From: a virus
Lineage: Duplodnaviria > Caudoviricetes
IMG/VR virus record: IMGVR_UViG_3300030116_005147
Coordinates: 1-55,990 of that record
Length of the DNA stretch: 55,990 nt
Reading direction: 5' to 3' (one strand)
In this document: positions 105 through 55,990 of the stretch, in pieces
Position numbering within the stretch: position 1 is the first letter of the stretch
How the letters are laid out: each line of letters opens with the position of its first letter
The notes under the pieces: generated by a model
Seen by the model: the letters and a program-made list of their open reading frames with translations, nothing else
What the model was told of the DNA's origin: nothing
Databases searched by the model: none
Program-made: the position numbers and the translations under genes

Positions 105-3100
105 ATGCGCGGAAAAGGCGTTGTTTTTGTTAGACAAGCTACTACCGAACAAAGAGCAGCAGCCGCTCGCAATTCCGGTATTCCTTTCTTATACAATACT
201 TTTGTTCCTTCTGCTCCTAGCGACACGCTCTATGTCAACGAAGACGGCTACGTAGTCGCTACAGAGAATACGTTTAAAGAAGGATCTTTTGCTATTGATT
301 ACACAGCGCAAGTTTTTAACAGCACTATTGCCTACACAGGCGCTGTGGGACACGAGCTTTGGGACTCAGGCGTTATCTCAGACATGTCGAGTTTTGCAAC
401 TACCGAAGACGGTAGTTTTAACTGGCAAGGCTTAGGCGGTCAGCAAACGCTTAAGCACCGAGTTGCTGAAGGAGAAACTTTAGAGGACATTGCTTTTAAG
501 TACTACGGCAGTAGAGAAAACATGCACGGTCAGTTGTGGGTAGAGCGGCAGCGTGTTGCGTTAGGTTTAGGCCCCGGCGAACAACCCCCCGTGGGCACTC
601 GCGTCTCCGTACATCGTGATGTCTTTGATGTGTTGAACAAAGCCGCTGCTGTTGCTCTGGGTACAGCAAAGGATGTAAACGTATGGGAGGAGATGGTAGA
701 AAGAGAGCAGTTGTTGGCAACAGAACAGCTTCTTGATTTGGCCGAGTGGTCTGCTCACAACCTGGATTTATCGGGCTCTGTTACGCTTCCTTTTGGCGGC
801 GGCCCGACGATGACCTCTGAAATAGAACTTCTTTCCTGGGGAGATTTTGACTTAGATACTAAGTCTGCCGCCTTGGGTGCTCTCTTTGCTACTAGCGGCA
901 TCTATGCAGACGTACGAGCAATAGATGCCTTTACTGGTACTATGGTTATTGCAGGTAAAGGTATTCAGGCTGGTAAGGCTTATAGGCAAGCCCGACAAGT
1001 CGAGCGCACTGCTAACGAGATGGTCAAGGTTGTAGACGAAGCGTACGATTACGACAGCCTGGTGCAGAAGATTAGAGAGATAAACCCTGGTGCAGACTAT
1101 GTGTACGAAGCCAAAGTAGCTGCGGCTATGGGTATAGACGAGAACGTATCGGCTCAGCTTAGGGCATTGGACAGAGCCAGAGAGCAAGAACAGATTCTTC
1201 TTCGCCGGGCAGAGTTAGACGAAGAGAGTTTGGTTTCTCAAGTAGAGAGAGCGGAGGCTACTGCTGCAAAAGACAGGGCAACAGAGAATATTCTGGAGAT
1301 ACAACTTAAGTCAGAAATACTTAAAAAGGAAGCTTACGAATCTGTTGTATCTGCTTTAGACAAACAAGGAGCGGTGGCAGCGGCCAAAAAGTACAAGCAA
1401 GAGCTTGAGGCTGCTGGAGTATTACAGAAACAAACAGACGCAGCGGTTGCTTCTCGTGATTCGTTTATTGCGAAGGAGACAACAAAGAGCCACGTTAGGA
1501 CTTTAGAAAACAACCAGAAGCAGATTAAGGATGCTGTAGAGCAGGAGAGCGCTGCGTCAAAGTCTTTTTCTGTAGAGGCAGAAAACGTAAAGACTGTTGT
1601 TACTGACCTTCGGCTTCAGAAGAGATCTCTTAATGCGCGAATGGATGAGTTGCGAGCAGCGCAACGACAAGAGCTTGATGACATTGCTCTGCAAGCACAA
1701 CCCGTACGTGCTCCTACAGCCGAACTGGTTGTAAGAGCCAAGAATGCAGGCGTGCCTATAGACATTAACAGACCCCCGACAAACCTTAGCAGCTTTAGAA
1801 AAAAAGTTAGTAGAGCAGAAAGCAAGGCAGGTAAGAAAGACGTTAATCCAGACGATGTGGAAGCCGTTCAAAAAGAACTCGATAAGGTGGCAGCGGCTAA
1901 CAAGAAGAAATCAATCAGCAAAAGAAGAGCAGGACAAGAGGCTGCGAAGAAACGTCACAAGGCAGAAAAACAAGAAATCTTAGATCAAATCAAAGACGTT
2001 AACAAAGACATTAAGTACCTGACCGCTAAAAGAAAACCTGGAGCCGAAAAGCTTGAAGGAAGCCCGGATGCGGAAAGGTTTTACAACAAAAAGAAAACAG
2101 CCAAAGAACGATTAGACAAGGCAAGAAAAGCCCGAGAAAGCCAAGTAAAGCAGGCCCGAGAGTATCGGGCATCTAAAGAAGCAAAGAAAATAAGAGAAGA
2201 GCTAAAGAAATTAGACGCAGAGGTGTTTCGATCGAACGCTGCCTTAGCTCGCGTAGAAGGCTCCGCCTACTCTCGACTAGCAGCTTACGCTCCCGGCATC
2301 AACATGGGCGTGCTGAAGAAGTCAGACGCAGTTGATGCGCTTGAAGAAGCAGTTCAAAGAAACAAGCAAGCTGCTCTGGATGCTGACGAAGCAGTTGCTG
2401 CTGCCAAGAAGAAATACCTTGAGTTTCAAACCTCTCGTAAGACCGCTCAACTATCTGCGCGAGAGGCAGAACGCGCTTTAGATAAGTTAATCGAAGTTAG
2501 GGACAGAAAAGCTCGCTTAGAGCAGAGCATTCGCGGCCAGACAGAACAGCAAGATGTTTGGCGTAAGATTGCTCTAAACATGGCAAGAGAGCTTAGAGAA
2601 GGAAACGGGTTGCTAAAGGCGTTCCCTGACCAATCTGTGAAGTTTGTAGACCCTCTTGGTCCTTCTACTATGTCTGTAAACGCACGCACCGGAGAACGTG
2701 TCATCGACACAAAACTACTTCGGAAGTCTTACGACGAGATGTACGGAGAAGACGCAGTAAATCACTTCTTAAAAACAGAGCCGGAAATGGCTAAGCCTCT
2801 CAATAACTTGTTGTCTAAGACAGGAGAGGTAACGCTGTCTGGAAGCGAGGTGTTTGGTATTCAGCAACTCCAGGCTGGGCTTCTTCGGGCTCGTGAGGCA
2901 GTGCATCCCAAAGCGCAATCGATAGCAACGGTTCGTGCTATTGCACAAGCCAAGGGAGATGTTGACATGATGCGCGTTTCTTTACGCGCATCCAAGAACT
3001 ATTTTAAGAGAGCTGGTCAAACGTTTTTGCACACGATGTCTTTGAATCCCGATTGGTTGGCGTACACGGCTGCTCGTATAGAGAACCAGTTTAACTCTAT

Positions 3101-6100
3101 CAACAATCGTGTCGGCCCTATCGCGGGTGAGTATGCTGCTCTGTTGAAGTCTGCAGACTACAGCGCGTCTATGATCAATGACGATTTGCGTTTGATTCAG
3201 AGAGAAGCACACGGCGGTACTCTTTTGGGAGGAGCCCCAGGTGTTGTCTTAGAGACTTTTAACGCCAACAAGAAATCGCTTAACTCTCAGAAAGCAACCA
3301 ACCTATATTTTGATTTGGTAGATGGGGACGTTCAGCGTCTTAGTACTACGGTCTTTGGAGAAGTAGAGGCTGTTGATGTTATCCGTGGTCTTCAGCAGGA
3401 AGTTAAAAGCTTAGACGAAAAACTTAAGGACATAGACAGAAAGCTTAAGATAGAGAGTGAAGTACCCGGAGAGACTCTTCTGGACGATGCTCTTCGGGAA
3501 GCCAGCGAAAACCTTACTATCAAGCAAAAGGAGTTGGAAGAAGCAGTAGCTGCTCAGCGTGTTTTAGAAGAACGCTTTTATAAGATGAAGCGAGACGTAG
3601 TTACTCAGTCCAATCGGCTTTCTGAAGAAGCAGATCTTTTAGAAAAAACCACTAAGGTATCAGACAACGAATATTCCGTTTTTAATAACTATACCGCTGC
3701 TATGCAAGCTAGAGAAGCTGGAGATACAGTCGCTTTTCAATCCAGAATAACAGACGCAGCGCAAGCATCTGGTGTGTTTTCTCCAGCTAAAATACGAGAC
3801 ATGCGTACAGGCTTCTTAAATGTTTTTGGGGACGCAGAAGAAACAGTTCTTAGAAACCTGGCTGCTGCTGTAGAGACAAAGCTTACACGTCCGCAGGCTT
3901 TGCGCCAAGAAGCAGACGACCTCTTGGTTGGTTTTGAAAGAGGAAACCACCCGCAGCAGAACAACTACGACCGCTTAGTAGCCCAGATTAGAGAATCCCA
4001 AGTCGAGGTAGCTGCTGCGGAAAAAGCAGGTAAGTTAGCAGAAGCTCGTATTAAAAACTTAGAGAGAGGTCAACTCCCCGAAGACCTTATGGCTGCTCTA
4101 ACCAGCAGACAGCAAGTAGTTCGTAAGCAACACGAATACAAACGCTTAGAGCAGAAAGTAGCAGTTCGACAGAAAGACGTAGATAAGTTGGACGCTGAAA
4201 TTGAAGACCTTCAAAACCAAATAGACACAAAGCCCGCGCAGATACAAGAGGAAATCGCTAAGCTTGAGCAAAAAGCTGCGCCCCTCTACACGCGACTACA
4301 GGCTGCTCAATACGTCGGAAACGTAGACGAATCCAGCGACTTGGCTGCAAGCATCGCAAGTATCAATAAAGAAATCGACGAAGCCCAACTGCGCTTTAAT
4401 GCGTATGCAGAAACGAGAACAAACACAGTCGACGGTTCGACTATTGTTGAGCCACGGTTTGATAACACCAACCCTTTATATAACCGAATCGAAAAAGCAA
4501 GGGCTCAACGAGACGATGTTTTTGCTAAGCTATCGAGTGATCAAGATTTATTAGCAGATATTAACACTGAGCTAAGACAACTAATCGATGAGGTAGGGTT
4601 TACTTCAATCAACAGCGAAACGAAGCTGGCTTTAGTACAAGAGCGTAAGTACGTAGAGCGCTTGATTGCGGAAACAAACCAGAAGATAAAAGACCAAACT
4701 AAGAAACCTTCTTACAAGGAAGCGAGTGATTTCTTAGAGTTTAGTGACGAAGGCAACGCACTTCGGGCTGCTACGGTTCGTAAACTAAAAGCTGAAAATC
4801 GACTTGAGCAGCTACAACAAAACTCTTCTTTTGTTGCTGGAGAATCTGAGTTCCACGCTCAGTTGCTTAAAGTAGCTATCGAGCAGGAGAAGAACGAGCT
4901 TGCTAGAGTACTACAAGCCACAAAGCCCGAAGAAGGTACGATATCTAGCGTTCAGAAAAGAATAAGCAACGCTCGACAGATTGCAAACGCTCTAAAGAAA
5001 GAGCCTTTGATTGACTCGTACGAAGAGACTTTGCGTCTTCTAACTAACCAAAAAGCGTTTACTTACGGCATGCACATTGAAAAGTTAGCAAGCGCAGAGC
5101 AAGAACTCTTGCTTGCAACACGGGCGTTTGACGAAGCAAAGCCAGCGTACAGCCAACGACTAAAAGCGTTGATGGACGGCGACGAGGTAATGCCTGTAGG
5201 CAATCGACAACACGGAGAGCTTATCGTCAAGAAGAACATTCCTATTAAGGTTGGGGCACGAACAACTGCGTCTAACACGGGCATGACTGTTCCTTGGGAC
5301 GATGCTGTTCATCAGTTTCGATACACTGACTTACTGCACTTCAATAAAAAAGTAGAAGCAGCAGCAAAGCAACCAGGTAACTTTTCTACCAACTTAAGAA
5401 ACCACGGTGTGTCTGAAGCGTTCATGGGATTGTCCCGCATGTGGTTACCCAGAGGACACAAGCTGTCGGATTACAACTCAACAGAGCTTTTGTCTTCTGC
5501 AGCAGACATCTTGGCGTCAGGAAAAGGAACTACTTTCAGAGAGTTCTCTGACGCTATGAGGTTGAAAACGTATCAGATTATTAAAGAAACTTCTGGTATT
5601 CCAGAACAAGCGTTGTTGGATTTAAACTCTACGACGAAAGCCGCTGAAGCAGAGCACTCTATCGCTATGGGCGCGTACAATGTTTTACGAGCATCGTTGC
5701 TCAAGAAGACACTGGACAGAATGGTGACCACGCATGGAGCGATGTTCACTACTAAACAAGCCGATGCGATTAACGCTTTCTTAGGTGCAGAAGCCGGAAT
5801 CAAATCTATTGACCCCGCAGATTGGCCAGACGTTGTCGAAGGACTAAACCGTCTCGGCACACCGATTACTCAAACGCACGTAGGTGCTCGCCACGGACTT
5901 GCAGAAAAAACCACGCGGCTAATCGCTTCGGGCGCTACTGCTGAGGGCTCTACTATTTACGCCAGAGAAGATTTGATTGGTGCCATTAACGATGTCTTTA
6001 ATGACGCTGCTAAAAGATCAGATAGATTCTACCGTGCTAGCAGTGATTCTCAGATGGGGCTGGGCTCCAAAGTTGCAAACAACAAACTGTATTCTATGTG

Positions 6101-8060
6101 GAAACAGAGCGTTACCACCGGGCTGATTCTACCGAATCCTCACTACTGGGCTAACACCGCAGTGGGTGACTTTTCGCAAATGGCTTTTACGGTTGGTTAT
6201 GGAACAGCGACCAAGCAAAGCCTTATGAACCTGCCTCACTTTGTTCCTGTATTAGGTAAGTACTGGCAGCCCTGGGTGTCTACAATGACGCACTGGTCTT
6301 CAAACAAGCCTGTCTTGGGGACACTGACAAACGCCTGGTTTAACCCGCACTTAAACAGCATCTGGAACAGAAAGCCCGGTTACATTGTTTTTAAAGGCGG
6401 GCAAACTGCTTCTTACGACGACGTATATCGCTTTGCTGTAGAAGACGGCATCATAGATTCAGTCATCCAACAAGAGTTCTTGGCTGCTTTAGATAGAGGC
6501 AAAACAGCAGCTATGAAAAACAAGTTTGAGTCTATGGCTACCATAGGCAAGAACTGGAACGAAGATATCTTGTTGTTTGCGGACTTTGCCCAGAAACGAC
6601 AAAGAATGGCTTTGTATGTAGATTTATTGCAGAAAGGCTATACAAGAAAAGAAGCGGCTCGTCTTACTTTAGAGGCTTTGTACGATTGGAAGCACGGTGT
6701 TTCTCAATGGGAAGTAGCTAAGATTTTGTGGATGAGCCCGTTCTGGCGGTTCTGGAAGAATGCTCTTAAGCAAACTGCTCGTGTCTATACCGACCCGCTT
6801 ACGAAGCCAGACAAGGTTATTCAGGAGCTTATGGCTTCTGGGCTCGGAGAAGTACCTGCGGGGTCTGCGGCTGCTCAAAGAATGCGTCAAACACTTATTG
6901 CTGCAGATCGAGGCGGCGAGATGTTGTATGAACAGTTTGCTCAAGACACAGAACCTGCCCAAGCTCGTTTCTATACGGACGTATTAGAAGATGGAAGGGC
7001 ACAACTAAAAGAAGTCTACATGGACGCTTCGGTGTTTATGCAAGACTACATGTTAGACAATCTTTACTACGGAACAACTACGCTGTCTGACCAGAAGCGG
7101 AAGTTTTTTGATACTGAGTTAGTTCCTTTGGGTGGTTTGTTAGACCCTCTGGGTAACGCAATGGGTATCGCCCCAGGAAGATCTCCCTTCCCAGACTCTA
7201 CGTCTGTAGACGCTCACAGGTCTTACACACACGCTCACTACATAGGTCCAAAGTTCTCTACCATAGAGTCGTTTGTCTTGTTCTCTACCCTTTCTGCTTG
7301 GGCTGTTTCTGGCGGATACGCTGCAAAAGAAGCAATAGAAAACGGAGAGGACACGGTCATAACACCTGACTTTATAGAGGACTTCGTACTAAAACCCTCT
7401 ACAAAAGTAATCGGCGGACCCGTAGCGTTTCCTATGTTGGAAGCTGCAGCCAAGATGGGCGGCTACGAGATTCCTTTTGGAACCTTAGACAGGTACGCGT
7501 ATCGAGGAGGATACAGTTCAACGCTGTCAGAAGGAGAAGCTTACCTAATGTCTGCAATGAACCTGAACGTTACACCCGCAGAAGCAAGAGAACAACTCAA
7601 GGAAGATCCAAAACCGTTTACTCCAGGCACCGCAGGAAAGTACGTAACCGACAACGCTTTTGGACTGTTCCTCTTACGGAACCTGCCCTTCGTAATGCAG
7701 CTACCTACTAAAGTAGATCAAGCTTACTTTAGGAATCCAGACGTGCAGAGAGGTTTGTTTCCCGCCGCATACGGTGCTTTTCAACAAATGGGAGGACTGC
7801 CTTATAAGCCCGTATACTTTGATCCCAAGCAGATATTTACAGGCAAACAATACGAAGTAGACAGCCAGTTTAAAGCCATGAAAGAGAAGTACGGTAAGCT
7901 GGAAGCAGATAGGAAAGCAGCTAAGTCGCGTGCTGCAGCCGAAAGGGACTTAGAGCAGAACATCGAGTTCTTGCGAGGCGAAGGCGAGATAGCACCGTTG
8001 CCGGAAGGAATGTCTACGGACGAGCTATTAGAGGGTTTTGGCGAAACAGCCGACGAGTAA
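105..8060 (+). CDS. C-terminal 2651 aa of a giant (about 3316 aa) putative internal virion/DNA-ejection protein with a LysM-like domain; true start is probably at 54004
   Basis: Frame is continuous with the open frame 54004-55990 across the circular junction; LysM-like segment HRVAEGETLEDIAFKYYG...PPVGTRVSV (about 456-611); long Ala/Lys/Glu coiled-coil stretches; last and largest of three genes after the tail genes, as in podovirus ejectosomes. Confidence 0.75.
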   Translation: MRGKGVVFVRQATTEQRAAAARNSGIPFLYNTFVPSAPSDTLYVNEDGYVVATENTFKEGSFAIDYTAQVFNSTIAYTGAVGHELWDSGVISDMSSFATTEDGSFNWQGLGGQQTLKHRVAEGETLEDIAFKYYGSRENMHGQLWVERQRVALGLGPGEQPPVGTRVSVHRDVFDVLNKAAAVALGTAKDVNVWEEMVEREQLLATEQLLDLAEWSAHNLDLSGSVTLPFGGGPTMTSEIELLSWGDFDLDTKSAALGALFATSGIYADVRAIDAFTGTMVIAGKGIQAGKAYRQARQVERTANEMVKVVDEAYDYDSLVQKIREINPGADYVYEAKVAAAMGIDENVSAQLRALDRAREQEQILLRRAELDEESLVSQVERAEATAAKDRATENILEIQLKSEILKKEAYESVVSALDKQGAVAAAKKYKQELEAAGVLQKQTDAAVASRDSFIAKETTKSHVRTLENNQKQIKDAVEQESAASKSFSVEAENVKTVVTDLRLQKRSLNARMDELRAAQRQELDDIALQAQPVRAPTAELVVRAKNAGVPIDINRPPTNLSSFRKKVSRAESKAGKKDVNPDDVEAVQKELDKVAAANKKKSISKRRAGQEAAKKRHKAEKQEILDQIKDVNKDIKYLTAKRKPGAEKLEGSPDAERFYNKKKTAKERLDKARKARESQVKQAREYRASKEAKKIREELKKLDAEVFRSNAALARVEGSAYSRLAAYAPGINMGVLKKSDAVDALEEAVQRNKQAALDADEAVAAAKKKYLEFQTSRKTAQLSAREAERALDKLIEVRDRKARLEQSIRGQTEQQDVWRKIALNMARELREGNGLLKAFPDQSVKFVDPLGPSTMSVNARTGERVIDTKLLRKSYDEMYGEDAVNHFLKTEPEMAKPLNNLLSKTGEVTLSGSEVFGIQQLQAGLLRAREAVHPKAQSIATVRAIAQAKGDVDMMRVSLRASKNYFKRAGQTFLHTMSLNPDWLAYTAARIENQFNSINNRVGPIAGEYAALLKSADYSASMINDDLRLIQREAHGGTLLGGAPGVVLETFNANKKSLNSQKATNLYFDLVDGDVQRLSTTVFGEVEAVDVIRGLQQEVKSLDEKLKDIDRKLKIESEVPGETLLDDALREASENLTIKQKELEEAVAAQRVLEERFYKMKRDVVTQSNRLSEEADLLEKTTKVSDNEYSVFNNYTAAMQAREAGDTVAFQSRITDAAQASGVFSPAKIRDMRTGFLNVFGDAEETVLRNLAAAVETKLTRPQALRQEADDLLVGFERGNHPQQNNYDRLVAQIRESQVEVAAAEKAGKLAEARIKNLERGQLPEDLMAALTSRQQVVRKQHEYKRLEQKVAVRQKDVDKLDAEIEDLQNQIDTKPAQIQEEIAKLEQKAAPLYTRLQAAQYVGNVDESSDLAASIASINKEIDEAQLRFNAYAETRTNTVDGSTIVEPRFDNTNPLYNRIEKARAQRDDVFAKLSSDQDLLADINTELRQLIDEVGFTSINSETKLALVQERKYVERLIAETNQKIKDQTKKPSYKEASDFLEFSDEGNALRAATVRKLKAENRLEQLQQNSSFVAGESEFHAQLLKVAIEQEKNELARVLQATKPEEGTISSVQKRISNARQIANALKKEPLIDSYEETLRLLTNQKAFTYGMHIEKLASAEQELLLATRAFDEAKPAYSQRLKALMDGDEVMPVGNRQHGELIVKKNIPIKVGARTTASNTGMTVPWDDAVHQFRYTDLLHFNKKVEAAAKQPGNFSTNLRNHGVSEAFMGLSRMWLPRGHKLSDYNSTELLSSAADILASGKGTTFREFSDAMRLKTYQIIKETSGIPEQALLDLNSTTKAAEAEHSIAMGAYNVLRASLLKKTLDRMVTTHGAMFTTKQADAINAFLGAEAGIKSIDPADWPDVVEGLNRLGTPITQTHVGARHGLAEKTTRLIASGATAEGSTIYAREDLIGAINDVFNDAAKRSDRFYRASSDSQMGLGSKVANNKLYSMWKQSVTTGLILPNPHYWANTAVGDFSQMAFTVGYGTATKQSLMNLPHFVPVLGKYWQPWVSTMTHWSSNKPVLGTLTNAWFNPHLNSIWNRKPGYIVFKGGQTASYDDVYRFAVEDGIIDSVIQQEFLAALDRGKTAAMKNKFESMATIGKNWNEDILLFADFAQKRQRMALYVDLLQKGYTRKEAARLTLEALYDWKHGVSQWEVAKILWMSPFWRFWKNALKQTARVYTDPLTKPDKVIQELMASGLGEVPAGSAAAQRMRQTLIAADRGGEMLYEQFAQDTEPAQARFYTDVLEDGRAQLKEVYMDASVFMQDYMLDNLYYGTTTLSDQKRKFFDTELVPLGGLLDPLGNAMGIAPGRSPFPDSTSVDAHRSYTHAHYIGPKFSTIESFVLFSTLSAWAVSGGYAAKEAIENGEDTVITPDFIEDFVLKPSTKVIGGPVAFPMLEAAAKMGGYEIPFGTLDRYAYRGGYSSTLSEGEAYLMSAMNLNVTPAEAREQLKEDPKPFTPGTAGKYVTDNAFGLFLLRNLPFVMQLPTKVDQAYFRNPDVQRGLFPAAYGAFQQMGGLPYKPVYFDPKQIFTGKQYEVDSQFKAMKEKYGKLEADRKAAKSRAAAERDLEQNIEFLRGEGEIAPLPEGMSTDELLEGFGETADE

Positions 8061-20982: not shown

Positions 20983-23124
20983 TTAAGCCAAATCACTATT
21001 AGATGCAAACACTAATATTTTATTTATTGTTCGCTCGTGCTTTTCAGCACCTCTAATATCTCTATACTCTCTACCTTCTGGTAGTTCGATGCCGGGTTTA
21101 ATCCAGTAGCTCATACGCATCTGGTCTGCCTGAGATCTTTTTAGTGGCGCGGCTCCCAGTTTCCTAAGCATTTTAGATAGTCGGTTGCTGGAGATACGAA
21201 CACCTGCCAGTGCCTTTTGAAACACATCAGTCATGGTAAAGGTTTCGTATCCTGGGCGTTCCAACCATTTTGCCAGAACGCCCATGAGAGGGTCCTCTTC
21301 GGTAAATCTCTCCTCCGCTATTCGCTTCTGCTCTGCCTCCATTGCACGGTCAAGGTGCCAGGGTTCGCCTGCGAGATAGGCTGCTCGGGCTTCTGCCCAC
21401 AGTTGGTTTCTATTCTTCTTGATCCATTCCAGGTTGACGTGTTGCTGTAGGCGCACGGGCCAGAAGCGTCGGCTACCTGTGGGGTCGGTCAGCGGTGTGT
21501 CTTCGTTACTGGTAGCCACGATGCAGGTGTGACGTGGGTAGTCCATTGCCTTTCTTTCAAAGGGCATACGGAAGTTATCTACCTGCGATGTGATGAATGC
21601 CTTGACCTTCTCAGCATCTGAGCGTCGGAAGGATGTGAGTTCTGCGACTTCGTAGATCCATGCTCGGGCGAGCATCATGAACGAGTCCTTGTTCTGCAAG
21701 GGGAGGTCGGTATCTCCGAACCACTCGCCACCTGCCAAGGTACGCAGCAGGGTTGACTTACCCAAGCCCTGTGCCCCGATGAGTAGGAGCACGGTATCTA
21801 CCTTGCAACCTGGAGAGTAGGCTCGGGCACATGCTGAGATAAGAAACTTCTTAGCGATGTTCTGATAATAGGGACTGGGCTCACACCCGAATGCTTTCTC
21901 CATCCATGTGCTTGCTCGTTCTATTCCGTCCCACTCAATCGAGTCCAACCATTCTAATAGTGGGTTCCTTTTGTTGGCGTATACAGCGGAGGCGAAGGCA
22001 TCGAACATCATGTTCTTACCGGGCTCAAAGCCGTAGTGCTCACCAATCCAGATGCGTGCGTTGATGACATCGGAGTCACGCAGTTGGCGCTCGTCAATCA
22101 TTTCGCAGAAGGTACGCTCGTTATACCAGAGTCGATTGGCCCATCGGGTGTCGAGGGTCAGGATGGTCACGGCGTTTTGCAGGCTGTTTCTAAACCCACC
22201 TTGCGCGGTGATGGTCAGTTGTTGGACGACATCTCTTTGTTGTCTGGGCGGAATCCATTCGTCATCCCAGTATGTCTGTCCGTCCTGTGCGGATGTGCAG
22301 ACGAGGTATGCCTGCCCTTCGTCGTTTCTTTTTAGGAAGGCAGAGTCTGTAGAAGATCCTTCATGGAAGGGACACTGCAATCGAATGCGGTGACCGTCAT
22401 GTCCAAGCTCTGCATCGACCAGTTCTCTAAGAGTAGCGTAAGTATTACTCCAATGGTCGAGTAGGTTTACCTCGGAGTACTTCTCTCGACGTATGCCCGT
22501 AGCATTCTCGATGCCGCTAAACACACCGCTGCTCTGACTGGTACGCTCTTGTCTCAGGTTGGGCACAGTCCGAGGTAGTTCATACACTGGCCCATCTGTA
22601 GACATAAGGAGCACAGCAACCGGCTCGTTACCTTTGCGGTTGAACGTACCAGGGGGTCGAAGGATACGTGTACCGGCGTCGGTGGCGTTGATGTCTGCCA
22701 TCGCAAAGCCGACTGTCTCGTTAATCTTATGTGCCAACCAACGGTTGACTGCTTTTGCATGGTCAACGTCATGACCGCCACAAGCAGTCCACAGGTAGAC
22801 GTGGTAACCGTAGCCTGACATAACAACTGCGGAGGGATCTACACCGGCTACCTGCTGGACCACCAACTCGATAGTCTCTAACAACTCTGCAAGATAAGTA
22901 TCGATGGCATCCCTATCCAATCCGTACAGTACCGACTTCGGTACTTGCAACCAATCGGATAAATCAAAGTCCAACACCAAGGTCGGACAACGTAGCAACT
23001 CCGACTTAGTGTGTGACTCTGCGCCCAGGGGGAAGAGTCCGGTCGTAACGTAGACCTCCTGTCCCACCACTCGCTGGGCATATTCTGTTCCCTCATCTAC
23101 CGGAGGGAGATGCCTATACTCCAT
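20983..23124 (-). CDS. Primase (AEP/RepB-like) - Zn finger - VirE/VapE-type helicase fusion
   Basis: LDFD, SGYGYHVY, RILRPPGTFN primase motifs; CPFH...C; GAQGLGKST, YEVAEL, DPTGSRRFWPV helicase motifs. Confidence 0.9.
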   Translation of the reverse strand: MEYRHLPPVDEGTEYAQRVVGQEVYVTTGLFPLGAESHTKSELLRCPTLVLDFDLSDWLQVPKSVLYGLDRDAIDTYLAELLETIELVVQQVAGVDPSAVVMSGYGYHVYLWTACGGHDVDHAKAVNRWLAHKINETVGFAMADINATDAGTRILRPPGTFNRKGNEPVAVLLMSTDGPVYELPRTVPNLRQERTSQSSGVFSGIENATGIRREKYSEVNLLDHWSNTYATLRELVDAELGHDGHRIRLQCPFHEGSSTDSAFLKRNDEGQAYLVCTSAQDGQTYWDDEWIPPRQQRDVVQQLTITAQGGFRNSLQNAVTILTLDTRWANRLWYNERTFCEMIDERQLRDSDVINARIWIGEHYGFEPGKNMMFDAFASAVYANKRNPLLEWLDSIEWDGIERASTWMEKAFGCEPSPYYQNIAKKFLISACARAYSPGCKVDTVLLLIGAQGLGKSTLLRTLAGGEWFGDTDLPLQNKDSFMMLARAWIYEVAELTSFRRSDAEKVKAFITSQVDNFRMPFERKAMDYPRHTCIVATSNEDTPLTDPTGSRRFWPVRLQQHVNLEWIKKNRNQLWAEARAAYLAGEPWHLDRAMEAEQKRIAEERFTEEDPLMGVLAKWLERPGYETFTMTDVFQKALAGVRISSNRLSKMLRKLGAAPLKRSQADQMRMSYWIKPGIELPEGREYRDIRGAEKHERTINKILVFASNSDLA

Positions 23125-23154
23125 GTTGTTCCCCTTGTACTCACCAACCGGGTC

Positions 23155-23183
23155 ATCCTATCAAAGACATCCCGACCAAGCAA
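23155..23183 (-). promoter_or_regulatory. sigma70-type promoter of the replication operon
   Basis: Minus strand TTGCTT-17 bp-TAGGAT with extended -10 TG, 30 bp upstream of the primase ATG (AAGGGG RBS). Confidence 0.7.
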
Positions 23184-23199
23184 ACACTATATGTTGTGT
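23184..23199. promoter_or_regulatory. NrdR-box-like operator
   Basis: ACACTATATGTTGTGT matches the NrdR consensus acaCwAtATaTwGtgt with one mismatch; abuts the -35 element. Confidence 0.65.
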
Positions 23200-23212
23200 C
23201 TTTTATCGAATC

Positions 23213-23570
23213 TGCCAAGCACTTACCCATTAAGTGGATGGCATCGATAACATAGGTTCTAACTGTACTTTCTAAATAGCTGCCAAGCACTGTACGTCTG
23301 TGCCCAGAGGAGTGGTTGGCAGCAATAACGTAGCTTCAAACGTAACAACCAAGCCCCTGCCAAGCACACCAACCACTTTTATCAAATTATTTAGTAAGTA
23401 TTTATCTATTAGTTAATCTATTTATTTATTTTATTTGTACTCTAATTATAGTGTGGCACCCGTTTTTACCCCGAGTGCTTGGCAGCCGCCTCATAACCTA
23501 CTTCCTTTGGGCACAATCGCTGCCAACCACACTCAAGAGTGCTTGGCACTGTGCTTGGCAGTGGTTGGCA
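23213..23570. repeat. Iteron-like TGCCAA[G/C]CAC repeats around an AT-rich core; probable replication origin
   Basis: Nine copies: forward 23213, 23281, 23358, 23521; reverse 23312, 23475, 23539, 23551, 23561; AT-rich tract about 23377-23450. Confidence 0.75.
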
Positions 23571-23766
23571 CGGTCCAAGTTTCCACCGTCTTACCCACCC
23601 ATCCGCACTCACACTGTCTCTTTCTCACGACGAAGTCTTCGCCGCGCCGTCCGATCCTGGTCAGCGCCCGTCTCCCTGCCCGAACCAGGCCGGGGTCTTT
23701 CGCCACCTTACTCTCCGTCCGGGTGGCGACCACCTTCGTTCCCTTCCCACACTCTGGGCACAGCAT
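23533..23766 (-). CDS. NrdR-like N-terminal Zn-ribbon protein without ATP cone
   Basis: MLCPECG-x-GTKVVATR...VVRKRQCECGWVGKTVE parallels NrdR MxCPxC...TxVxDSR...RRRRECxxCxxRFTTxE. Confidence 0.65.
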   Translation of the reverse strand: MLCPECGKGTKVVATRTESKVAKDPGLVRAGRRALTRIGRRGEDFVVRKRQCECGWVGKTVETWTVPTTAKHSAKHS

Positions 23767-24029
23767 CAGGCTTCTGCCGCAACAAAAGTACTCGACGAGT
23801 ACCCGCAGCTAATGCACATCTTCCATGCGTCGGGCAGCACCTCGCCATCCCCGGCCAACAAACCGATAGATCCACACGCTGGACACACTTCCACATCCGG
23901 TGCCAGAGTCAGCGCCACGAACGCCAAGTCCCGCAGTGCGTGCCACTCATCTTCCGTAACGATGTACGAACCGTCGGTCAGCCTACGGCGTCTCGCCTTG
24001 TCTACCATTTCATCTAAAGTTTTCTTCAT
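23766..24029 (-). CDS. Zn-ribbon protein
   Basis: CPACG...CISCG; AGGAG RBS favours start at 24029. Confidence 0.6.
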   Translation of the reverse strand: MKKTLDEMVDKARRRRLTDGSYIVTEDEWHALRDLAFVALTLAPDVEVCPACGSIGLLAGDGEVLPDAWKMCISCGYSSSTFVAAEA

Positions 24030-24033
24030 AGCA

Positions 24034-24423
24034 TCACTCCTGTAACCAAACATACCGTATCACTCCACCCAATCTTCTTCTCTTTCTCGTCCACCCATTC
24101 GCCCGCAAACATTTAGTCACGGCATCATGCACAGATCTCCTACCAATCACCCGGCAATCCTCCCCCCACATAAAACGAACCAACGTCCTCACCTCAAACG
24201 GACCTATCTCCTCCCACAAGCCACGCGCGACTATCTGCACCTCGCCCTCGCGCACATCACCCACTCCCTTGGGCACAGACAAAGACTCCAACGCTTCCCA
24301 ATCACGAGTCAACGCTTCTTCCAACGCTTCAATAGCAGCTATCCGCGCAGTCACCCCACGCCGTCTCCCCAACTCCGCTGCTAAAACATCTACCTTCCTC
24401 TCTGTTTTCCTTCTATTGCTCAT
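24034..24423 (-). CDS. Basic hypothetical protein, possible winged-helix DNA-binding domain
   Basis: 129 aa; AGGAG RBS; C-terminal VTKCLRANGWTRKRRR...RYVW. Confidence 0.55.
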   Translation of the reverse strand: MSNRRKTERKVDVLAAELGRRRGVTARIAAIEALEEALTRDWEALESLSVPKGVGDVREGEVQIVARGLWEEIGPFEVRTLVRFMWGEDCRVIGRRSVHDAVTKCLRANGWTRKRRRLGGVIRYVWLQE

Positions 24424-34858: not shown

Positions 34859-35420
34859 TTTCCGGTTCTAAACCTGACACGATCACGATCGATCATGCCA
34901 GGATCCGAACCGGAAAATTGGCCCGGTCGCTATCTCCTTCTCTCCATATTTTGGGTTTGTCTCTCCATATTTTGGGTTTGTACACTTTGAGACAGCGACC
35001 GGGCATCAAATAAAATCACCCCATTGCCTATGGGATTAGATGGGCGGGAATTTCCAACGTGTCACTACATAGGGTGCCTCCTATGCCGTCGGTGTGCTTG
35101 CAAGCTTGAACGGTTCCACTCACTTATCTATTACGGTGATCATTGTCCGGGGCTCGCTCCCTACCTCGCTCGGGGCAGATCATAGCTGTTCGGACGATCC
35201 CGCAATCCTTTAGATCGTGTACTGCGTTCTTACTTGGGGGTTGGTGCTGTCATGGCACTGTCCCGTCCATCATTGCGCTAGGCTGTTCGGTTCTGTATTC
35301 CGGTGGAGAATGCGTCTCCACTGGTCAAGGGTTGCCGGATATTGGCTTTGCGCTCTACGTATATTGGGTTTGTCAAAGATCGCTCGCTGTTGTCGTTCCT
35401 CAGTCGTTAGCAGCGAGTGG
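34859..35420. ncRNA. Candidate structured leader/ncRNA upstream of the early genes
   Basis: Consecutive long hairpins (34859-34916, 34921-35004, 35068-35085, 35300-35324, 35383-35417), boxA-like GATCTTTGACAA on the - strand, no convincing ORF. Confidence 0.45.
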
Positions 35421-40473: not shown

Positions 40474-40799
40474 TGGCTCTTCCTGCTCTGGCTGCTCTTA
40501 TTCCTATGTTTACTGGTGCGGGTGCTGCTGGTGCTGCTGGTGCTGCTGGTGCTGCTGGTGCTGCTGGTGCTGCGGGGACTGCTGCTGGACCGATTGGTGC
40601 TGCCTTGGCTTCTCCCGGTGGACAAGCAGCACTTACTGGAGCAGCAAAGTTAGGCAAAGCTGCAGAAGAAAGACAAATGCAAGAAGCAACGCAGCCTAAG
40701 CCTTCTGAAACGTTAGCTGCTTCTGTTCCTCAAAACAGAGGACAAGACCCTTTTGGCGCGGCAGCTATTAAAAGAAGATACAACCAACTACTGGGTTAA
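40473..40799 (+). CDS. Gly/Ala-repeat small protein
   Basis: 108 aa, (GGTGCTGCT)n at about 40521-40572. Confidence 0.6.
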   Translation: MALPALAALIPMFTGAGAAGAAGAAGAAGAAGAAGTAAGPIGAALASPGGQAALTGAAKLGKAAEERQMQEATQPKPSETLAASVPQNRGQDPFGAAAIKRRYNQLLG

Positions 40800-54003: not shown

Positions 54004-55990
54004 GTGACTACCCCCAAGACGTTCGGACTAAAGAAACCAACAGGCACAAGAAGTTTTGGTTTAAAGGAACCAACAGGCACAAGAAGTTTTGGTTTAAAGG
54101 AACCAAAAGGCACAACCAAAACCGATAAAAGTGCTGGTTCTCAAGAACCCACAGGCACAAGAAGTTTTGCTTTAGAGGAACCAAAGGATGTTTCTGAGTT
54201 TCTTGTACTTACAGAAACAAAACCGCCTCCGCAAGTAGCCGTCAAAGGCCAAGTGGCTGCTTTAAAGAACCCGAAAGATTACACAGACGAAGACTTAATC
54301 TTTCCCGAACGTCAGCTTCTAAAACAAACGGTTGATGTAAAGAAACGATTTGAGCAGCGAACAAGTCCTTGGTGGGTAGGCGCTCATACGGTTGGAACGG
54401 AGACTGTTGGTGGCGGGGTAGAGGTTCCTCAGTACGCTCGTGACAAAGACTTTGTCTATTACGCTGGGGCTCCTAACAGGATTGACGAAGTTATGGGCTT
54501 GACGCGAAGGGCTACGTATGAAGAGATAGACGCGAACATAGCCAAGTTAGTTGAGAAAGGGTTTAATCCCTCTATTGCTTTGGAAATGGCACCGGTCTTG
54601 GCCTGGAAAGACGAGCTTTCCAGAGAAAAGGCGATGAAAAGTCGCTTTTCAAACAAGGCGTTGAAGAGTGATAGAGACTTATCTAACGAATATGTACAGA
54701 GTGTTGGTGAGTTTTTAAAAGAAGAAACAGATCTTCGCTTGGCTGTGGAGGAGCTTTACCGAGATACAATCGCTAAGTTCTCTGTAGATCAAAAATATCC
54801 TGAGACAAAAGAACAACAGGTAGCTGCACTAAGGAAACTCAACGCCGAAGGAACAGAGCAAGACAAAGAAATCGCAGAACACGGCTTTAACTACCTGCAG
54901 GACACGAGGTATTTGCTAAGAGCCGCAGGCGAAGAATACAACACAGGGGTTAAAATCTCTGAGCAGCTACAGAAGACAGCTTGGATTCGGCAACGAAACG
55001 TCTTATCGGACGAGATAGCAAAAGAAATAAAAGACAATGCTCCTGAAAACTACGCACAAGCATCTGCCTTAGCAGAAGAAATTGTAGGGCTAAAAGGAAA
55101 CGACGAGCAGTTTGAGTACTACGTAGATCCCTCTGGCTACGCTACCACGTCGGGCCTGAAGACTTTGGGAAAAGCCACTTTGTCGGACGACTACGTTCAA
55201 GGCTCTATAAAGTCTGGTATTTACGTAGACCAGGAAGGCGCTGATGTTTTATCTGTTCGTCCTTTTGGCGGTGGAGGAACACTTAGAAAAAAAGACAGCC
55301 CGTTACCGGAAGACTTCAAAGCCCTCTACGAGAACTACGACCGCTACCAAGCAGCCGTTAAGAAGGCGGCACAAGACAAAAACCCGCAGATGCTGAGTCA
55401 GCTCATTGCGTATAAGAAAGCATACGGTGCGCTTCGTGCGTACGAAGCAGGTTTCCAGGTAGGCGAGAAAGTAGAGCTTCAAGGCCAACGCATTGTGCGG
55501 AGGCCAGACGAAAAAGGAGCGGCTGCGGCGGAGAGAGAAGCGGCTACTAAGTGGGCTCGCGAGATTATTTTCTTAAACGATGTTCTTGCTTATCGAAATA
55601 ACCTTGTTGCACAGCAAGTAGATACAGCGGCTGAGTTCGCTGGAGTCGATCCCAGAGCAATGGCTGAGATTGTTTTTAGTAGGAAGCTACAAGCTTCTGG
55701 CGCAAAAGCAAATGAGCAGGCGTTTGATTATGAAGCTACCTTTAACGCCATCAAAGAACATCAAATGACCGTAATCGCTCAGTCTTTGGGGTATGAAGAC
55801 TACGAAGACATGGCGTATTCTGCAGATACAGTGGAAAGTCTTTCCAGTCCCGATGCACGAAAAGGCGAGTACACGTACATAAACAGTTTAGGCGATGAGA
55901 TTACTATACGTGTCACTAATAGTCCCAGCGACAGACTAAGCCATTATGCAGAAAAAATTGCTCACCAGAAAGCAAAGAAGATTATCAACC
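54004..55990 (+). CDS. N-terminal part of the giant virion protein (continues at 97-8060)
   Basis: GGAGG RBS then GTG at 54004; I read the frame codon by codon and found no stop to the window end; missed by the ORF track. Confidence 0.85.
   Translation, partial: MTTPKTFGLKKPTGTRSFGLKEPTGTRSFGLKEPKGTTKTDKSAGSQEPTGTRSFALEEPKDVSEFLVLTETKPPPQVAVKGQVAALKNPKDYTDEDLIFPERQLLKQTVDVKKRFEQRTSPWWVGAHTVGTETVGGGVEVPQYARDKDFVYYAGAPNRIDEVMGLTRRATYEEIDANIAKLVEKGFNPSIALEMAPVLAWKDELSREKAMKSRFSNKALKSDRDLSNEYVQSVGEFLKEETDLRLAVEELYRDTIAKFSVDQKYPETKEQQVAALRKLNAEGTEQDKEIAEHGFNYLQDTRYLLRAAGEEYNTGVKISEQLQKTAWIRQRNVLSDEIAKEIKDNAPENYAQASALAEEIVGLKGNDEQFEYYVDPSGYATTSGLKTLGKATLSDDYVQGSIKSGIYVDQEGADVLSVRPFGGGGTLRKKDSPLPEDFKALYENYDRYQAAVKKAAQDKNPQMLSQLIAYKKAYGALRAYEAGFQVGEKVELQGQRIVRRPDEKGAAAAEREAATKWAREIIFLNDVLAYRNNLVAQQVDTAAEFAGVDPRAMAEIVFSRKLQASGAKANEQAFDYEATFNAIKEHQMTVIAQSLGYEDYEDMAYSADTVESLSSPDARKGEYTYINSLGDEITIRVTNSPSDRLSHYAEKIAHQKAKKIIN
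54035..54183 (+). repeat. 33-bp coding tandem repeat (EPTGTRSFGLK)
   Basis: Units at 54035, 54068, partial 54101, diverged 54146. Confidence 0.85.
55895..55990. repeat. Terminal direct repeat (copy 2)
   Basis: Identical to 1-96. Confidence 0.95.

Follow-up and report, generated by a model that had tools for sequence, protein, structure and literature searches.

The window analysed here, a DNA stretch of 55,990 bp, is the complete genome of an uncultured marine phage (IMG/VR record IMGVR_UViG_3300030116_005147, class ‘direct terminal repeats’), and our preferred reading of the DNA in front of its primase-helicase gene is that of an origin and control region of the phage with a putative cognate pair, a ribbon-only protein of the NrdR type and a single NrdR-type operator. 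The protein, here called p77, is a small zinc ribbon encoded on the minus strand, and the candidate operator is the 16-bp palindrome ACACTATATGTTGTGT (minus strand ACACAACATATAGTGT), here called the box. Gene and box lie 334 bp apart in the 56-kb genome and each is the only NrdR-like one in it; for this reason we put first, tentatively, the reading that p77 binds the single box and may thereby control primase-helicase expression or origin firing. The sequence observations behind this reading are real and above chance, and they, the conservation of the region and the fold relationship of p77 to NrdR are demonstrated below. An initial annotation of the region had picked out the box and the ribbon, and had missed the iterons, the AT-rich core, the CxC second knuckle of p77 and the Ala at its specificity Asp position.

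A stand-alone NrdR-type zinc ribbon

Pfam ranking, Foldseek and VIA all put NrdR first, so that p77 is, as judged from its predicted structure, a ribbon of the NrdR type in which a helix is inserted after the first strand and before the second. The 77-aa open reading frame had been singled out at the start for the N-terminal pattern of NrdR, and it is indeed NrdR-ribbon-like both by Pfam ranking and by structure. The protein contains exactly four Cys residues and has an isoelectric point (pI) of 10.2. Its first knuckle is CPEC and its second CEC (CxC), the latter being CPEC (CxxC) in the relatives P0003 and L003. The best Pfam family is PF22811 (Zn_ribbon_NrdR), with residues 1–19 aligned at 20.9 bits against a cut-off of 27.2 (13.4 bits in a six-frame search). 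The same family ranks top for four of five p77 relatives, and the most distant two, P0005 and P0006, pass at 29.3 bits. No NCBIfam NrdR match was obtained for p77, and sequence searches against the PDB with p77, the family profile and P0006 returned nothing significant, NrdR appearing only at E 2.7–2.9. The family has few members: among 1.84 billion representatives, exhaustive searching with HMMER gave 4 proteins at E ≤ 0.001, and a word-index search gave 3.

The AlphaFold2 model of p77, built from 8 sequences, has a mean predicted local distance difference test score (pLDDT) of 83.9 and shows a strand (residues 9–17), a helix (25–37) and two further strands (45–52 and 57–63), followed by a disordered tail (70–77, pLDDT below 50). 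When the model was compared with the PDB by Foldseek, ranks 1–10 were all NrdR, with probabilities of 0.97–1.0, TM scores of 0.41–0.46 and 25–29% identity, and the next entry followed at a probability of 0.38. In line with this, VIA, a comparison independent of Foldseek that covered 48,161 chains, placed the NrdR proteins of S. coelicolor (7p37_A) and E. coli at ranks 1 and 2 (Z 4.2 and 4.1; root-mean-square deviation 1.9 Å). These alignments, of 43 and 42 residues with 40% and 38% identity, fall onto chain residues 1–45, that is, onto the NrdR ribbon. Low Z values are expected for a domain of 43 residues.

Compared with bacterial NrdR (S. coelicolor 7P37 and 7P3F; E. coli 9FVR, 9FXK and 9GEX; PMC9110341 and PMC13584703), p77 shares the zinc-ribbon fold, the Arg of the xSR motif and the basic run. 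The specificity motif, D-S-R in P0005 and P0006, reads A-T-R in p77, which thus retains the Arg; an RKR run, where the NrdR ribbon has RRRR, precedes the second knuckle. In contrast to bacterial NrdR, it carries a helical insertion of ~20–25 residues between the first two strands, an Ala in place of the Asp and the CxC second knuckle, and it lacks the ATP-cone and hence nucleotide sensing and the ATP-cone-mediated tetramer. The absence of the cone, already remarked upon in the initial annotation, is borne out by the open reading frame, which ends at 77 aa, and by PF03477 (ATP-cone), which has no match anywhere in the genome at E ≤ 1; homologues of greater length were not found (a weak test). 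TIGR00244 (NrdR proper; NCBIfam cut-off 124.65 bits), positive in 9 of 14 control genomes, likewise has no match in the complete genome. The genome was also said to encode no recognisable ribonucleotide reductase (RNR), and searches of it for ATP-cone, NrdR and class I, II and III RNR domains gave no match.

A closer relationship of p77 to the Ogr/Delta activators or to other zinc ribbons had been raised as a possibility; the NrdR ribbon matches better. Against the Ogr/Delta family PF04606 (cut-off 26.3 bits) p77 has no match at E ≤ 1, and its relative P0003 reaches 16.2 bits (E 0.01), ranking behind PF22811. Ogr/Delta proteins of P2-like phages resemble p77 in being small zinc-ribbon DNA-binding regulators of phages, and a few structural neighbours among predicted viral structures (BFVD) are so named; unlike them, p77 has no PF04606 match, and its genome is not P2-like.

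The box, its conservation and its possible readers

Mismatches were counted against the NrdR-box consensus ACACWATATATWGTGT, which we take to be that of the literature. The box reported at the outset is present: ACACTATATGTTGTGT is the sole site within one mismatch of the consensus in the 55,990-bp genome, and 0 of 100 dinucleotide shuffles gave such a site. Within three mismatches, the genome contains 2 sites against 0.32 expected. The box has the required base at all six highly conserved positions (C4, A6, A8, T9, T11 and G13), and 7 of the 8 bases between C4 and G13 are A/T; the published criteria for a box are these six positions and at least 63% A/T between C4 and G13 (PMC13584703). The match is strong because the ACAC and GTGT arms fit as well, and not by the six positions alone. 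On the coding strand of the downstream gene, ACACAACATATAGTGT is identical at 14 of 16 positions to a logo-derived synthetic box (PMC13584703, Table 3).

As the initial annotation had it, the box stands in front of the primase-helicase gene at the head of the replication block, ending 59 nt 5′ of the ATG. The ‘good sigma70 promoter’ that was said to abut it did not hold up. The sole sigma70 candidate, TTGCTT (23183–23178) and TAGGAT (23160–23155) separated by 17 nt, matches at 7 of 12 positions, and a promoter scan of 22900–24200 called 0 sites.

Conservation was followed in six loci returned by a metagenome scan (L001 to L006). L002 is nearly identical to the window, p77 is 73–79% identical in L001, L003 and L004 and 33% in L005, and the match in L006 covers 16 residues only. 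The gene order p129–p95–p77–spacer–primase is kept in relatives, and the box is unchanged in L001 and L002, whereas the spacer DNA between the iterons is only 67% identical in L001 (Table 1). Thus the box neither scores at background nor lacks conservation in relatives, either of which would have spoken against it. The upstream edge of conservation falls at the edge of the box, the adjoining 12 nt being only half identical in L001. Contigs from four marine runs, two of them with identical figures and perhaps one data set, add two further divergent lineages. Among the differences listed for these, positions 23169, 23175, 23200 and 23204–23208 vary and none lies at 23176–23199, a pattern that is, among those differences, supportive but not conclusive.

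Which protein would read the box? The initial annotation had it read by host NrdR, coupling the replication genes to the status of the deoxynucleoside triphosphates (dNTPs). In this account, host NrdR would bind the box and repress the primase-helicase promoter according to dATP/ATP (dATP, deoxyadenosine triphosphate), and p77 would compete with it or relieve repression, also derepressing host nrd genes. In its favour, the box matches in quality those found naturally, 77% of bacterial genomes have NrdR, and NrdRs bind heterologous boxes (PMC13584703); moreover, the phage has no RNR domains of its own, and p77 lacks the Asp that reads C4/G13, which host NrdR would have. However, E. coli NrdR did not bind isolated box 1 or box 2 (PMC13584703), work in vitro and in vivo led to the conclusion that NrdR is unable to bind one box alone (PMC12051234), and it needs two boxes with accepted linkers of 15–16 or 26–27 bp (PMC13584703). 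These linkers correspond to start-to-start distances of 31–32 or 42–43 bp, and no partner box with at least 5 of the 6 positions lies at 31, 32, 42 or 43 bp. Two candidate partners were rejected. The best nearby site, at +41, has 4 of 6 positions only and is an iteron that has decayed here but is intact in L001, and the 3-mismatch site lies 255 bp away within the AT-rich core and is poorly kept in L001 (Table 1). Direct control of the box by host NrdR is unlikely, because NrdR needs two boxes and the box here stands alone. Since NrdR binds DNA as dATP rises (PMC9110341), such control would also shut off the phage replication genes just when precursors are plentiful. We consider the account with host NrdR as repressor and p77 as its competitor very improbable.

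We favour the view that the box is read by the 77-aa ribbon of the phage itself. In bacterial NrdR, one ribbon pair occupies each box, ribbon–ribbon contacts bury ~1200 Å2, and the DNA is kinked by ~90 degrees (PMC9110341). A ribbon-only protein that pairs with itself, as p77 may do, would need one box and would sense no nucleotides. Bound to the box, 59 nt before the primase-helicase start and beside the outermost iteron, p77 could set replication-gene transcription, bend origin DNA, or both; any direction of this regulation is one that we infer. The box is alike to the bacterial NrdR operator in its 16-bp architecture, in C4, A6, A8, T9, T11 and G13, and in its AT-rich centre. It differs in being one box and not two, and in its target, which is a replication gene and origin region and not an RNR operon; the gene downstream encodes a primase-helicase and neither a ribonucleotide reductase nor NrdR.

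Several points weigh against p77 as the reader of the box. The Pfam score of p77 lies under the cut-off, its second knuckle is CxC, and Foldseek E-values of 0.05–0.16 and a Z of 4.2 are weak in absolute terms. D15 and R17 of NrdR contact the conserved C4/G13 pairs (PMC9110341, PMC13584703), and the specificity Asp (D15 in S. coelicolor) is aligned with Ala in p77 and with Thr in P0003 and L003, so that p77 may read another sequence, possibly the iterons. On the DNA side, the six-position rule by itself is common, with 11 genome sites satisfying it, and the block from box to ATG is conserved at 85%, which makes 16 identical bases out of 16 less striking (0.85^16 = 0.07). The full box alignment comes from one clearly diverged relative only, L001. 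The co-occurrence of box and gene in related phages, proposed as a check in the initial annotation, is kept in L001 and does not extend to a small sample of other lineages: a good box stands beside the gene in 0 of 3 other lineages of ribbon-only NrdR-like proteins (mini-NrdRs), namely L005, L125 and L129, for which 8.2, 6.0 and 3.1 kb were examined. In the family of record G007 gene and box are far apart, 26 kb in G007 itself.

The number of sites satisfying the six-position rule, the conserved leader from which box conservation cannot be separated, and the other lineages without an adjacent box would also suit a likeness to the NrdR box that is coincidental, as would perfect consensus palindromes in unrelated phage settings such as L010, described below. 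The palindrome would then be an ordinary promoter or origin element (for instance the operator of an unrelated regulator, a bendable AT tract or a promoter's upstream element), and p77 would act elsewhere, for example on host DNA. We regard this as unlikely. A 16-mer within one mismatch did not arise in the shuffled genomes and is expected ~0.002 times per genome, and its position within 500 bp of the only NrdR-like gene contributes a further factor of ~0.02, both figures being post hoc; in addition, the edge of conservation coincides with the box edge.

Iterons around an AT-rich core

The 408-bp spacer between the p77 and primase-helicase genes is dominated by an 11-bp repeat (Table 1). At up to one mismatch, this iteron has 13 matches in the genome, of which 9 lie in the array and four are scattered; 2.15 are expected, and 0 of 100 shuffles reach 13. 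Three of the iterons extend into the 3′ end of the p77 gene, where they encode the disordered tail TAKHSAKHS. No other 75-mer of the genome is as rich in A+T as the core that separates the iteron groups, the next one having 73.3% A+T (mean 49.5%, standard deviation 7.0). The anatomy is of the origin type: iterons in both orientations surround an AT-rich core, and the primase-helicase gene follows immediately downstream. Judged by this anatomy, the spacer is most likely a phage replication-control region with a candidate origin. The GC-skew profile of the genome tracks gene orientation and is uninformative on the origin. In divergent contigs, the AT-rich core is swapped for unalignable DNA of nearly equal length (135–136 nt in place of 130–131 nt). 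An identity of the iterons with DnaA boxes was set aside on inspection by eye, as the common variant has a G where the DnaA box has a conserved C.

Lambda ori and the ori/crr of P4 with its alpha primase-helicase resemble this anatomy in their clustered short repeats in both orientations, the AT-rich stretch that these flank, and the position beside an initiator or helicase gene; some of their repeats also lie inside a coding region. Compared with these origins, the iteron sequence found here is new, and the origin role is read from the sequence. The alpha protein of phage P4 is a primase-helicase able to bind the iterons of its own origin.

In a different role, p77 would be an accessory to replication, either as an initiator that binds the iterons, as a factor for helicase loading or as a zinc-binding module that serves the primase in trans, and the palindrome would have another reader, such as p129, the primase-helicase or a host bending protein. 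The change of Asp to Ala suggests an altered specificity, three iterons overlap the 3′ end of the p77 gene, and in L005, where no box is near, the distant homologue shows translational coupling to a DUF927 helicase. Moreover, by eye, the iteron sequence GCAC(T/A) or CCAC(T/A) resembles the ACAC(T/A) half-box, a likeness that tells against specific reading of the box by p77. Against an accessory role, however, p77 is tied to the iterons by proximity alone, and the primase-helicase may bind its own iterons, as P4 alpha does, so that a further binder would be superfluous. By its fold p77 matches NrdR and not primase zinc-binding domains (PF08273 only at E 0.018, in P0003), and the adjacency of gene and box would be left as a coincidence. 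We judge this role, too, to be unlikely, and continue to prefer p77 as a reader of the box.

Two further genes lie upstream of p77 in a three-gene operon. p95 and p77 are translationally coupled through a TGATG overlap, and the weak PF07704 match of p129 is to an Rv0623-like transcription-factor family. Either p129 or p95 could bind the iterons or act together with p77.

Table 1. Features of the candidate origin and control region and of the adjoining genes, with identity to the relative L001.
Feature	Position	Strand	Remarks	Identity to L001
Primase-helicase, 713 aa	20983..23124	-	VapE-like Pfam domain 3e-76; PHROG DNA helicase/primase families 5e-88 to 1e-21; first gene of replication block	
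Whole spacer	23125-23532			311/408
Primase-helicase leader	23125..23183	-	AAGGGG Shine-Dalgarno-like run; weak sigma70-like candidate	50/59 (85%)
Box, single NrdR-type 16-bp palindrome	23184..23199		1 mismatch to consensus	16/16 (likewise 16/16 in L002)
12 nt upstream of box	23200-23211			6/12
Nine 11-bp iterons, CTGCCAAGCAC / CTGCCAACCAC	23212..23571	both	seven exact, two with one mismatch	97/99 bases
Iterons, plus orientation	23212, 23280, 23357, 23520	+		
Iterons, minus orientation	23312, 23475, 23539, 23551, 23561	-		
Spacer DNA between iterons				179/267 (67%)
AT-rich core, candidate DNA-unwinding element	23376..23452		86.7% A+T; between iteron groups	
3-mismatch site	23439-23454			9/16
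p77, stand-alone NrdR-type zinc ribbon (predicted), 77 aa	23533..23766	-	helix inserted between strands 1 and 2	
p95, acidic, C-terminal CxxC...CxxC	23766..24053	-	weak generic zinc-ribbon Pfam matches only	kept in L001, L003 and L004 at 68-74%
p129, basic (pI 10.2), first gene of three-gene operon	24034..24423	-	85% identity in L003 and L004; PF07704 match under the cut-off (E 0.0065)	

Ribbon-only proteins in other phages and the phage lineage

Ribbon-only NrdR-like proteins are common in phages, and the protein class is not new. Of the top 50 matches among predicted viral structures (BFVD), many (12 by name) are phage proteins called ‘NrdR-like N-terminal domain-containing protein’, 51–185 aa long and mostly 51–81 aa, and in the ESM Atlas 25 of 30 feature matches share the family set of the listed PF22811 clusters (75–78 aa, 94–100% viral). 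These phage proteins, which carry PF22811 only, are alike to p77 in size class and fold; in contrast to them, the p77 lineage has the helical insertion and scores below the Pfam cut-off. An hhalign comparison of the p77 family with two canonical phage mini-NrdRs gave 96% probability over the first 17 columns. Our literature search returned no description of a function or DNA target for phage ribbon-only NrdR proteins, nor of NrdR boxes at phage replication genes.

Among the cases examined, p77 is the only one with an NrdR-type box adjoining its gene. Other mini-NrdR genes are found in replication or recombination modules in L005 and L129. In L005 (4001–6291), the stop codon of the p77 homologue overlaps the start (TAATG) of the DUF927 helicase gene, which carries a Cch-type helix-turn-helix. 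The phage module of L005 further contains an SMC-like ATPase and a metallophosphatase, and an upstream fragment resembles, by eye, a family-A DNA polymerase. The L129 mini-NrdR lies upstream of genes that are, by eye, recombinase-like and like those for single-stranded-DNA-binding proteins. The mini-NrdR of L125 to L127 was rejected as a box–gene pair, as it stands beside a portal gene and has no box, and no viral locus was found for P0006.

A survey of perfect consensus boxes in IMG/VR gave 80 loci with flanks among the matches listed. Of these, 21 have a partner box at a canonical spacing, the partner reaching 6 of 6 positions in 17. In these 17 listed loci (L008, L012, L024, L057, L074 and 12 others) the second box with 6 of 6 positions lies at a start-to-start distance of 31, 32 or 42 bp, which is, as judged by spacing and sequence, the canonical NrdR operator layout in phage genomes. 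The records of L008, L012, L024, L057 and L074 contain no PF22811 gene, and a strict regular expression for the ribbon found 0 open reading frames within 2 kb of the surveyed boxes (a weak test). A PF22811 match above the cut-off is encoded in 22 of the 79 listed perfect-box records that were searched, in open frames of 69–129 aa. Judged by their box flanks, these 22 are apparently one redundant phage family, mostly of ~55–59 kb and from one data set, and we claim no enrichment.

The family of L010 and L129 (record G007), with ~20 sister records, encodes a canonical ribbon-only NrdR that scores ~48–52 bits on PF22811, one record scoring 35.7. In this family, as seen in L010, the perfect consensus palindrome lies 6 bp past the stop codon of a terminase gene (named by eye), where it starts a stretch of ~880 bp without long open reading frames ahead of a gene that is portal-like by eye.

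The phage genome itself is bounded by a 96-bp exact direct terminal repeat (1–96 and 55895–55990), in agreement with the class of the record. PHROG and Pfam scans identify genes for large terminase, portal and major head proteins on the plus strand, indicating a tailed phage, and a replication block on the minus strand with the VapE-type primase-helicase, a PD-(D/E)XK exonuclease, an SNF2-type helicase, a family-A DNA polymerase and a RuvC-like resolvase. No transfer RNA genes and no Rfam families were found in the genome. A blastn search of cultured phages with the phage DNA returned no near relative. The primase-helicase matched 1017 cultured-phage records, each of them less than 60% identical and with under 80% of the query covered, and the portal protein matched 1 record at 21% identity. 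No close relative of p77 or of the primase-helicase was found in IMG/VR, in cultured phages (blastn and tblastn) or in species genomes. Marine and seawater metagenome runs of at least 11 other studies contain near-identical DNA.

Elsewhere in the window, an open reading frame of 2651 aa occupies the left genome end (105–8060, plus strand), ~14% of its length, and matches no PHROG family at E ≤ 1e-5. Between 32603 and 33711, five copies of a ~20-nt cassette (plus strand CATGGTTTCTATTTCCTATT) apparently overlap the start codons of small minus-strand genes; an early gene cluster might share them as a module for translation initiation or as a promoter leader. Near the right end (54018–54185) lie 57-nt repeats at spacings of 33–45 bp, and a 21-bp direct repeat, TCTCTCCATATTTTGGGTTTG, occurs twice in tandem (34939–34980), with a third copy, 81% identical, 392 bp off (35352–35372); these may be further regulatory or packaging sites. 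A 9-bp repeat, GCTGCTGGT, is found in about seven tandem copies at 40505–40603, within a small plus-strand open reading frame of the structural module.

A more far-reaching proposal takes p77 for a nucleotide-blind mimic of the DNA-binding head of NrdR, at once a dedicated reader of the phage box at the origin and primase promoter and an agent against host NrdR. As a joint proposal this is quite improbable in our judgement; in its host-directed arm, p77 may occupy host NrdR boxes or pair with host ribbons, poisoning the DNA-binding tetramer. Host ribonucleotide reductase would then be freed from dATP feedback, supplying a phage without a reductase of its own, and the many NrdR-like proteins of phages that consist of a ribbon only would serve generally to take over the dNTP supply.

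The iteron array provides a candidate origin for an uncultured marine phage lineage without cultured relatives, and p77 with its conserved near-consensus box constitutes a concrete, testable protein–DNA pair. If the pairing is true, the NrdR ribbon would be an autonomous DNA-binding module acting on one box, and phages would have adopted, to control their own replication, the code by which the universal RNR repressor recognises DNA. An interference of such proteins with the dNTP regulation of the host would thereby become testable as well.

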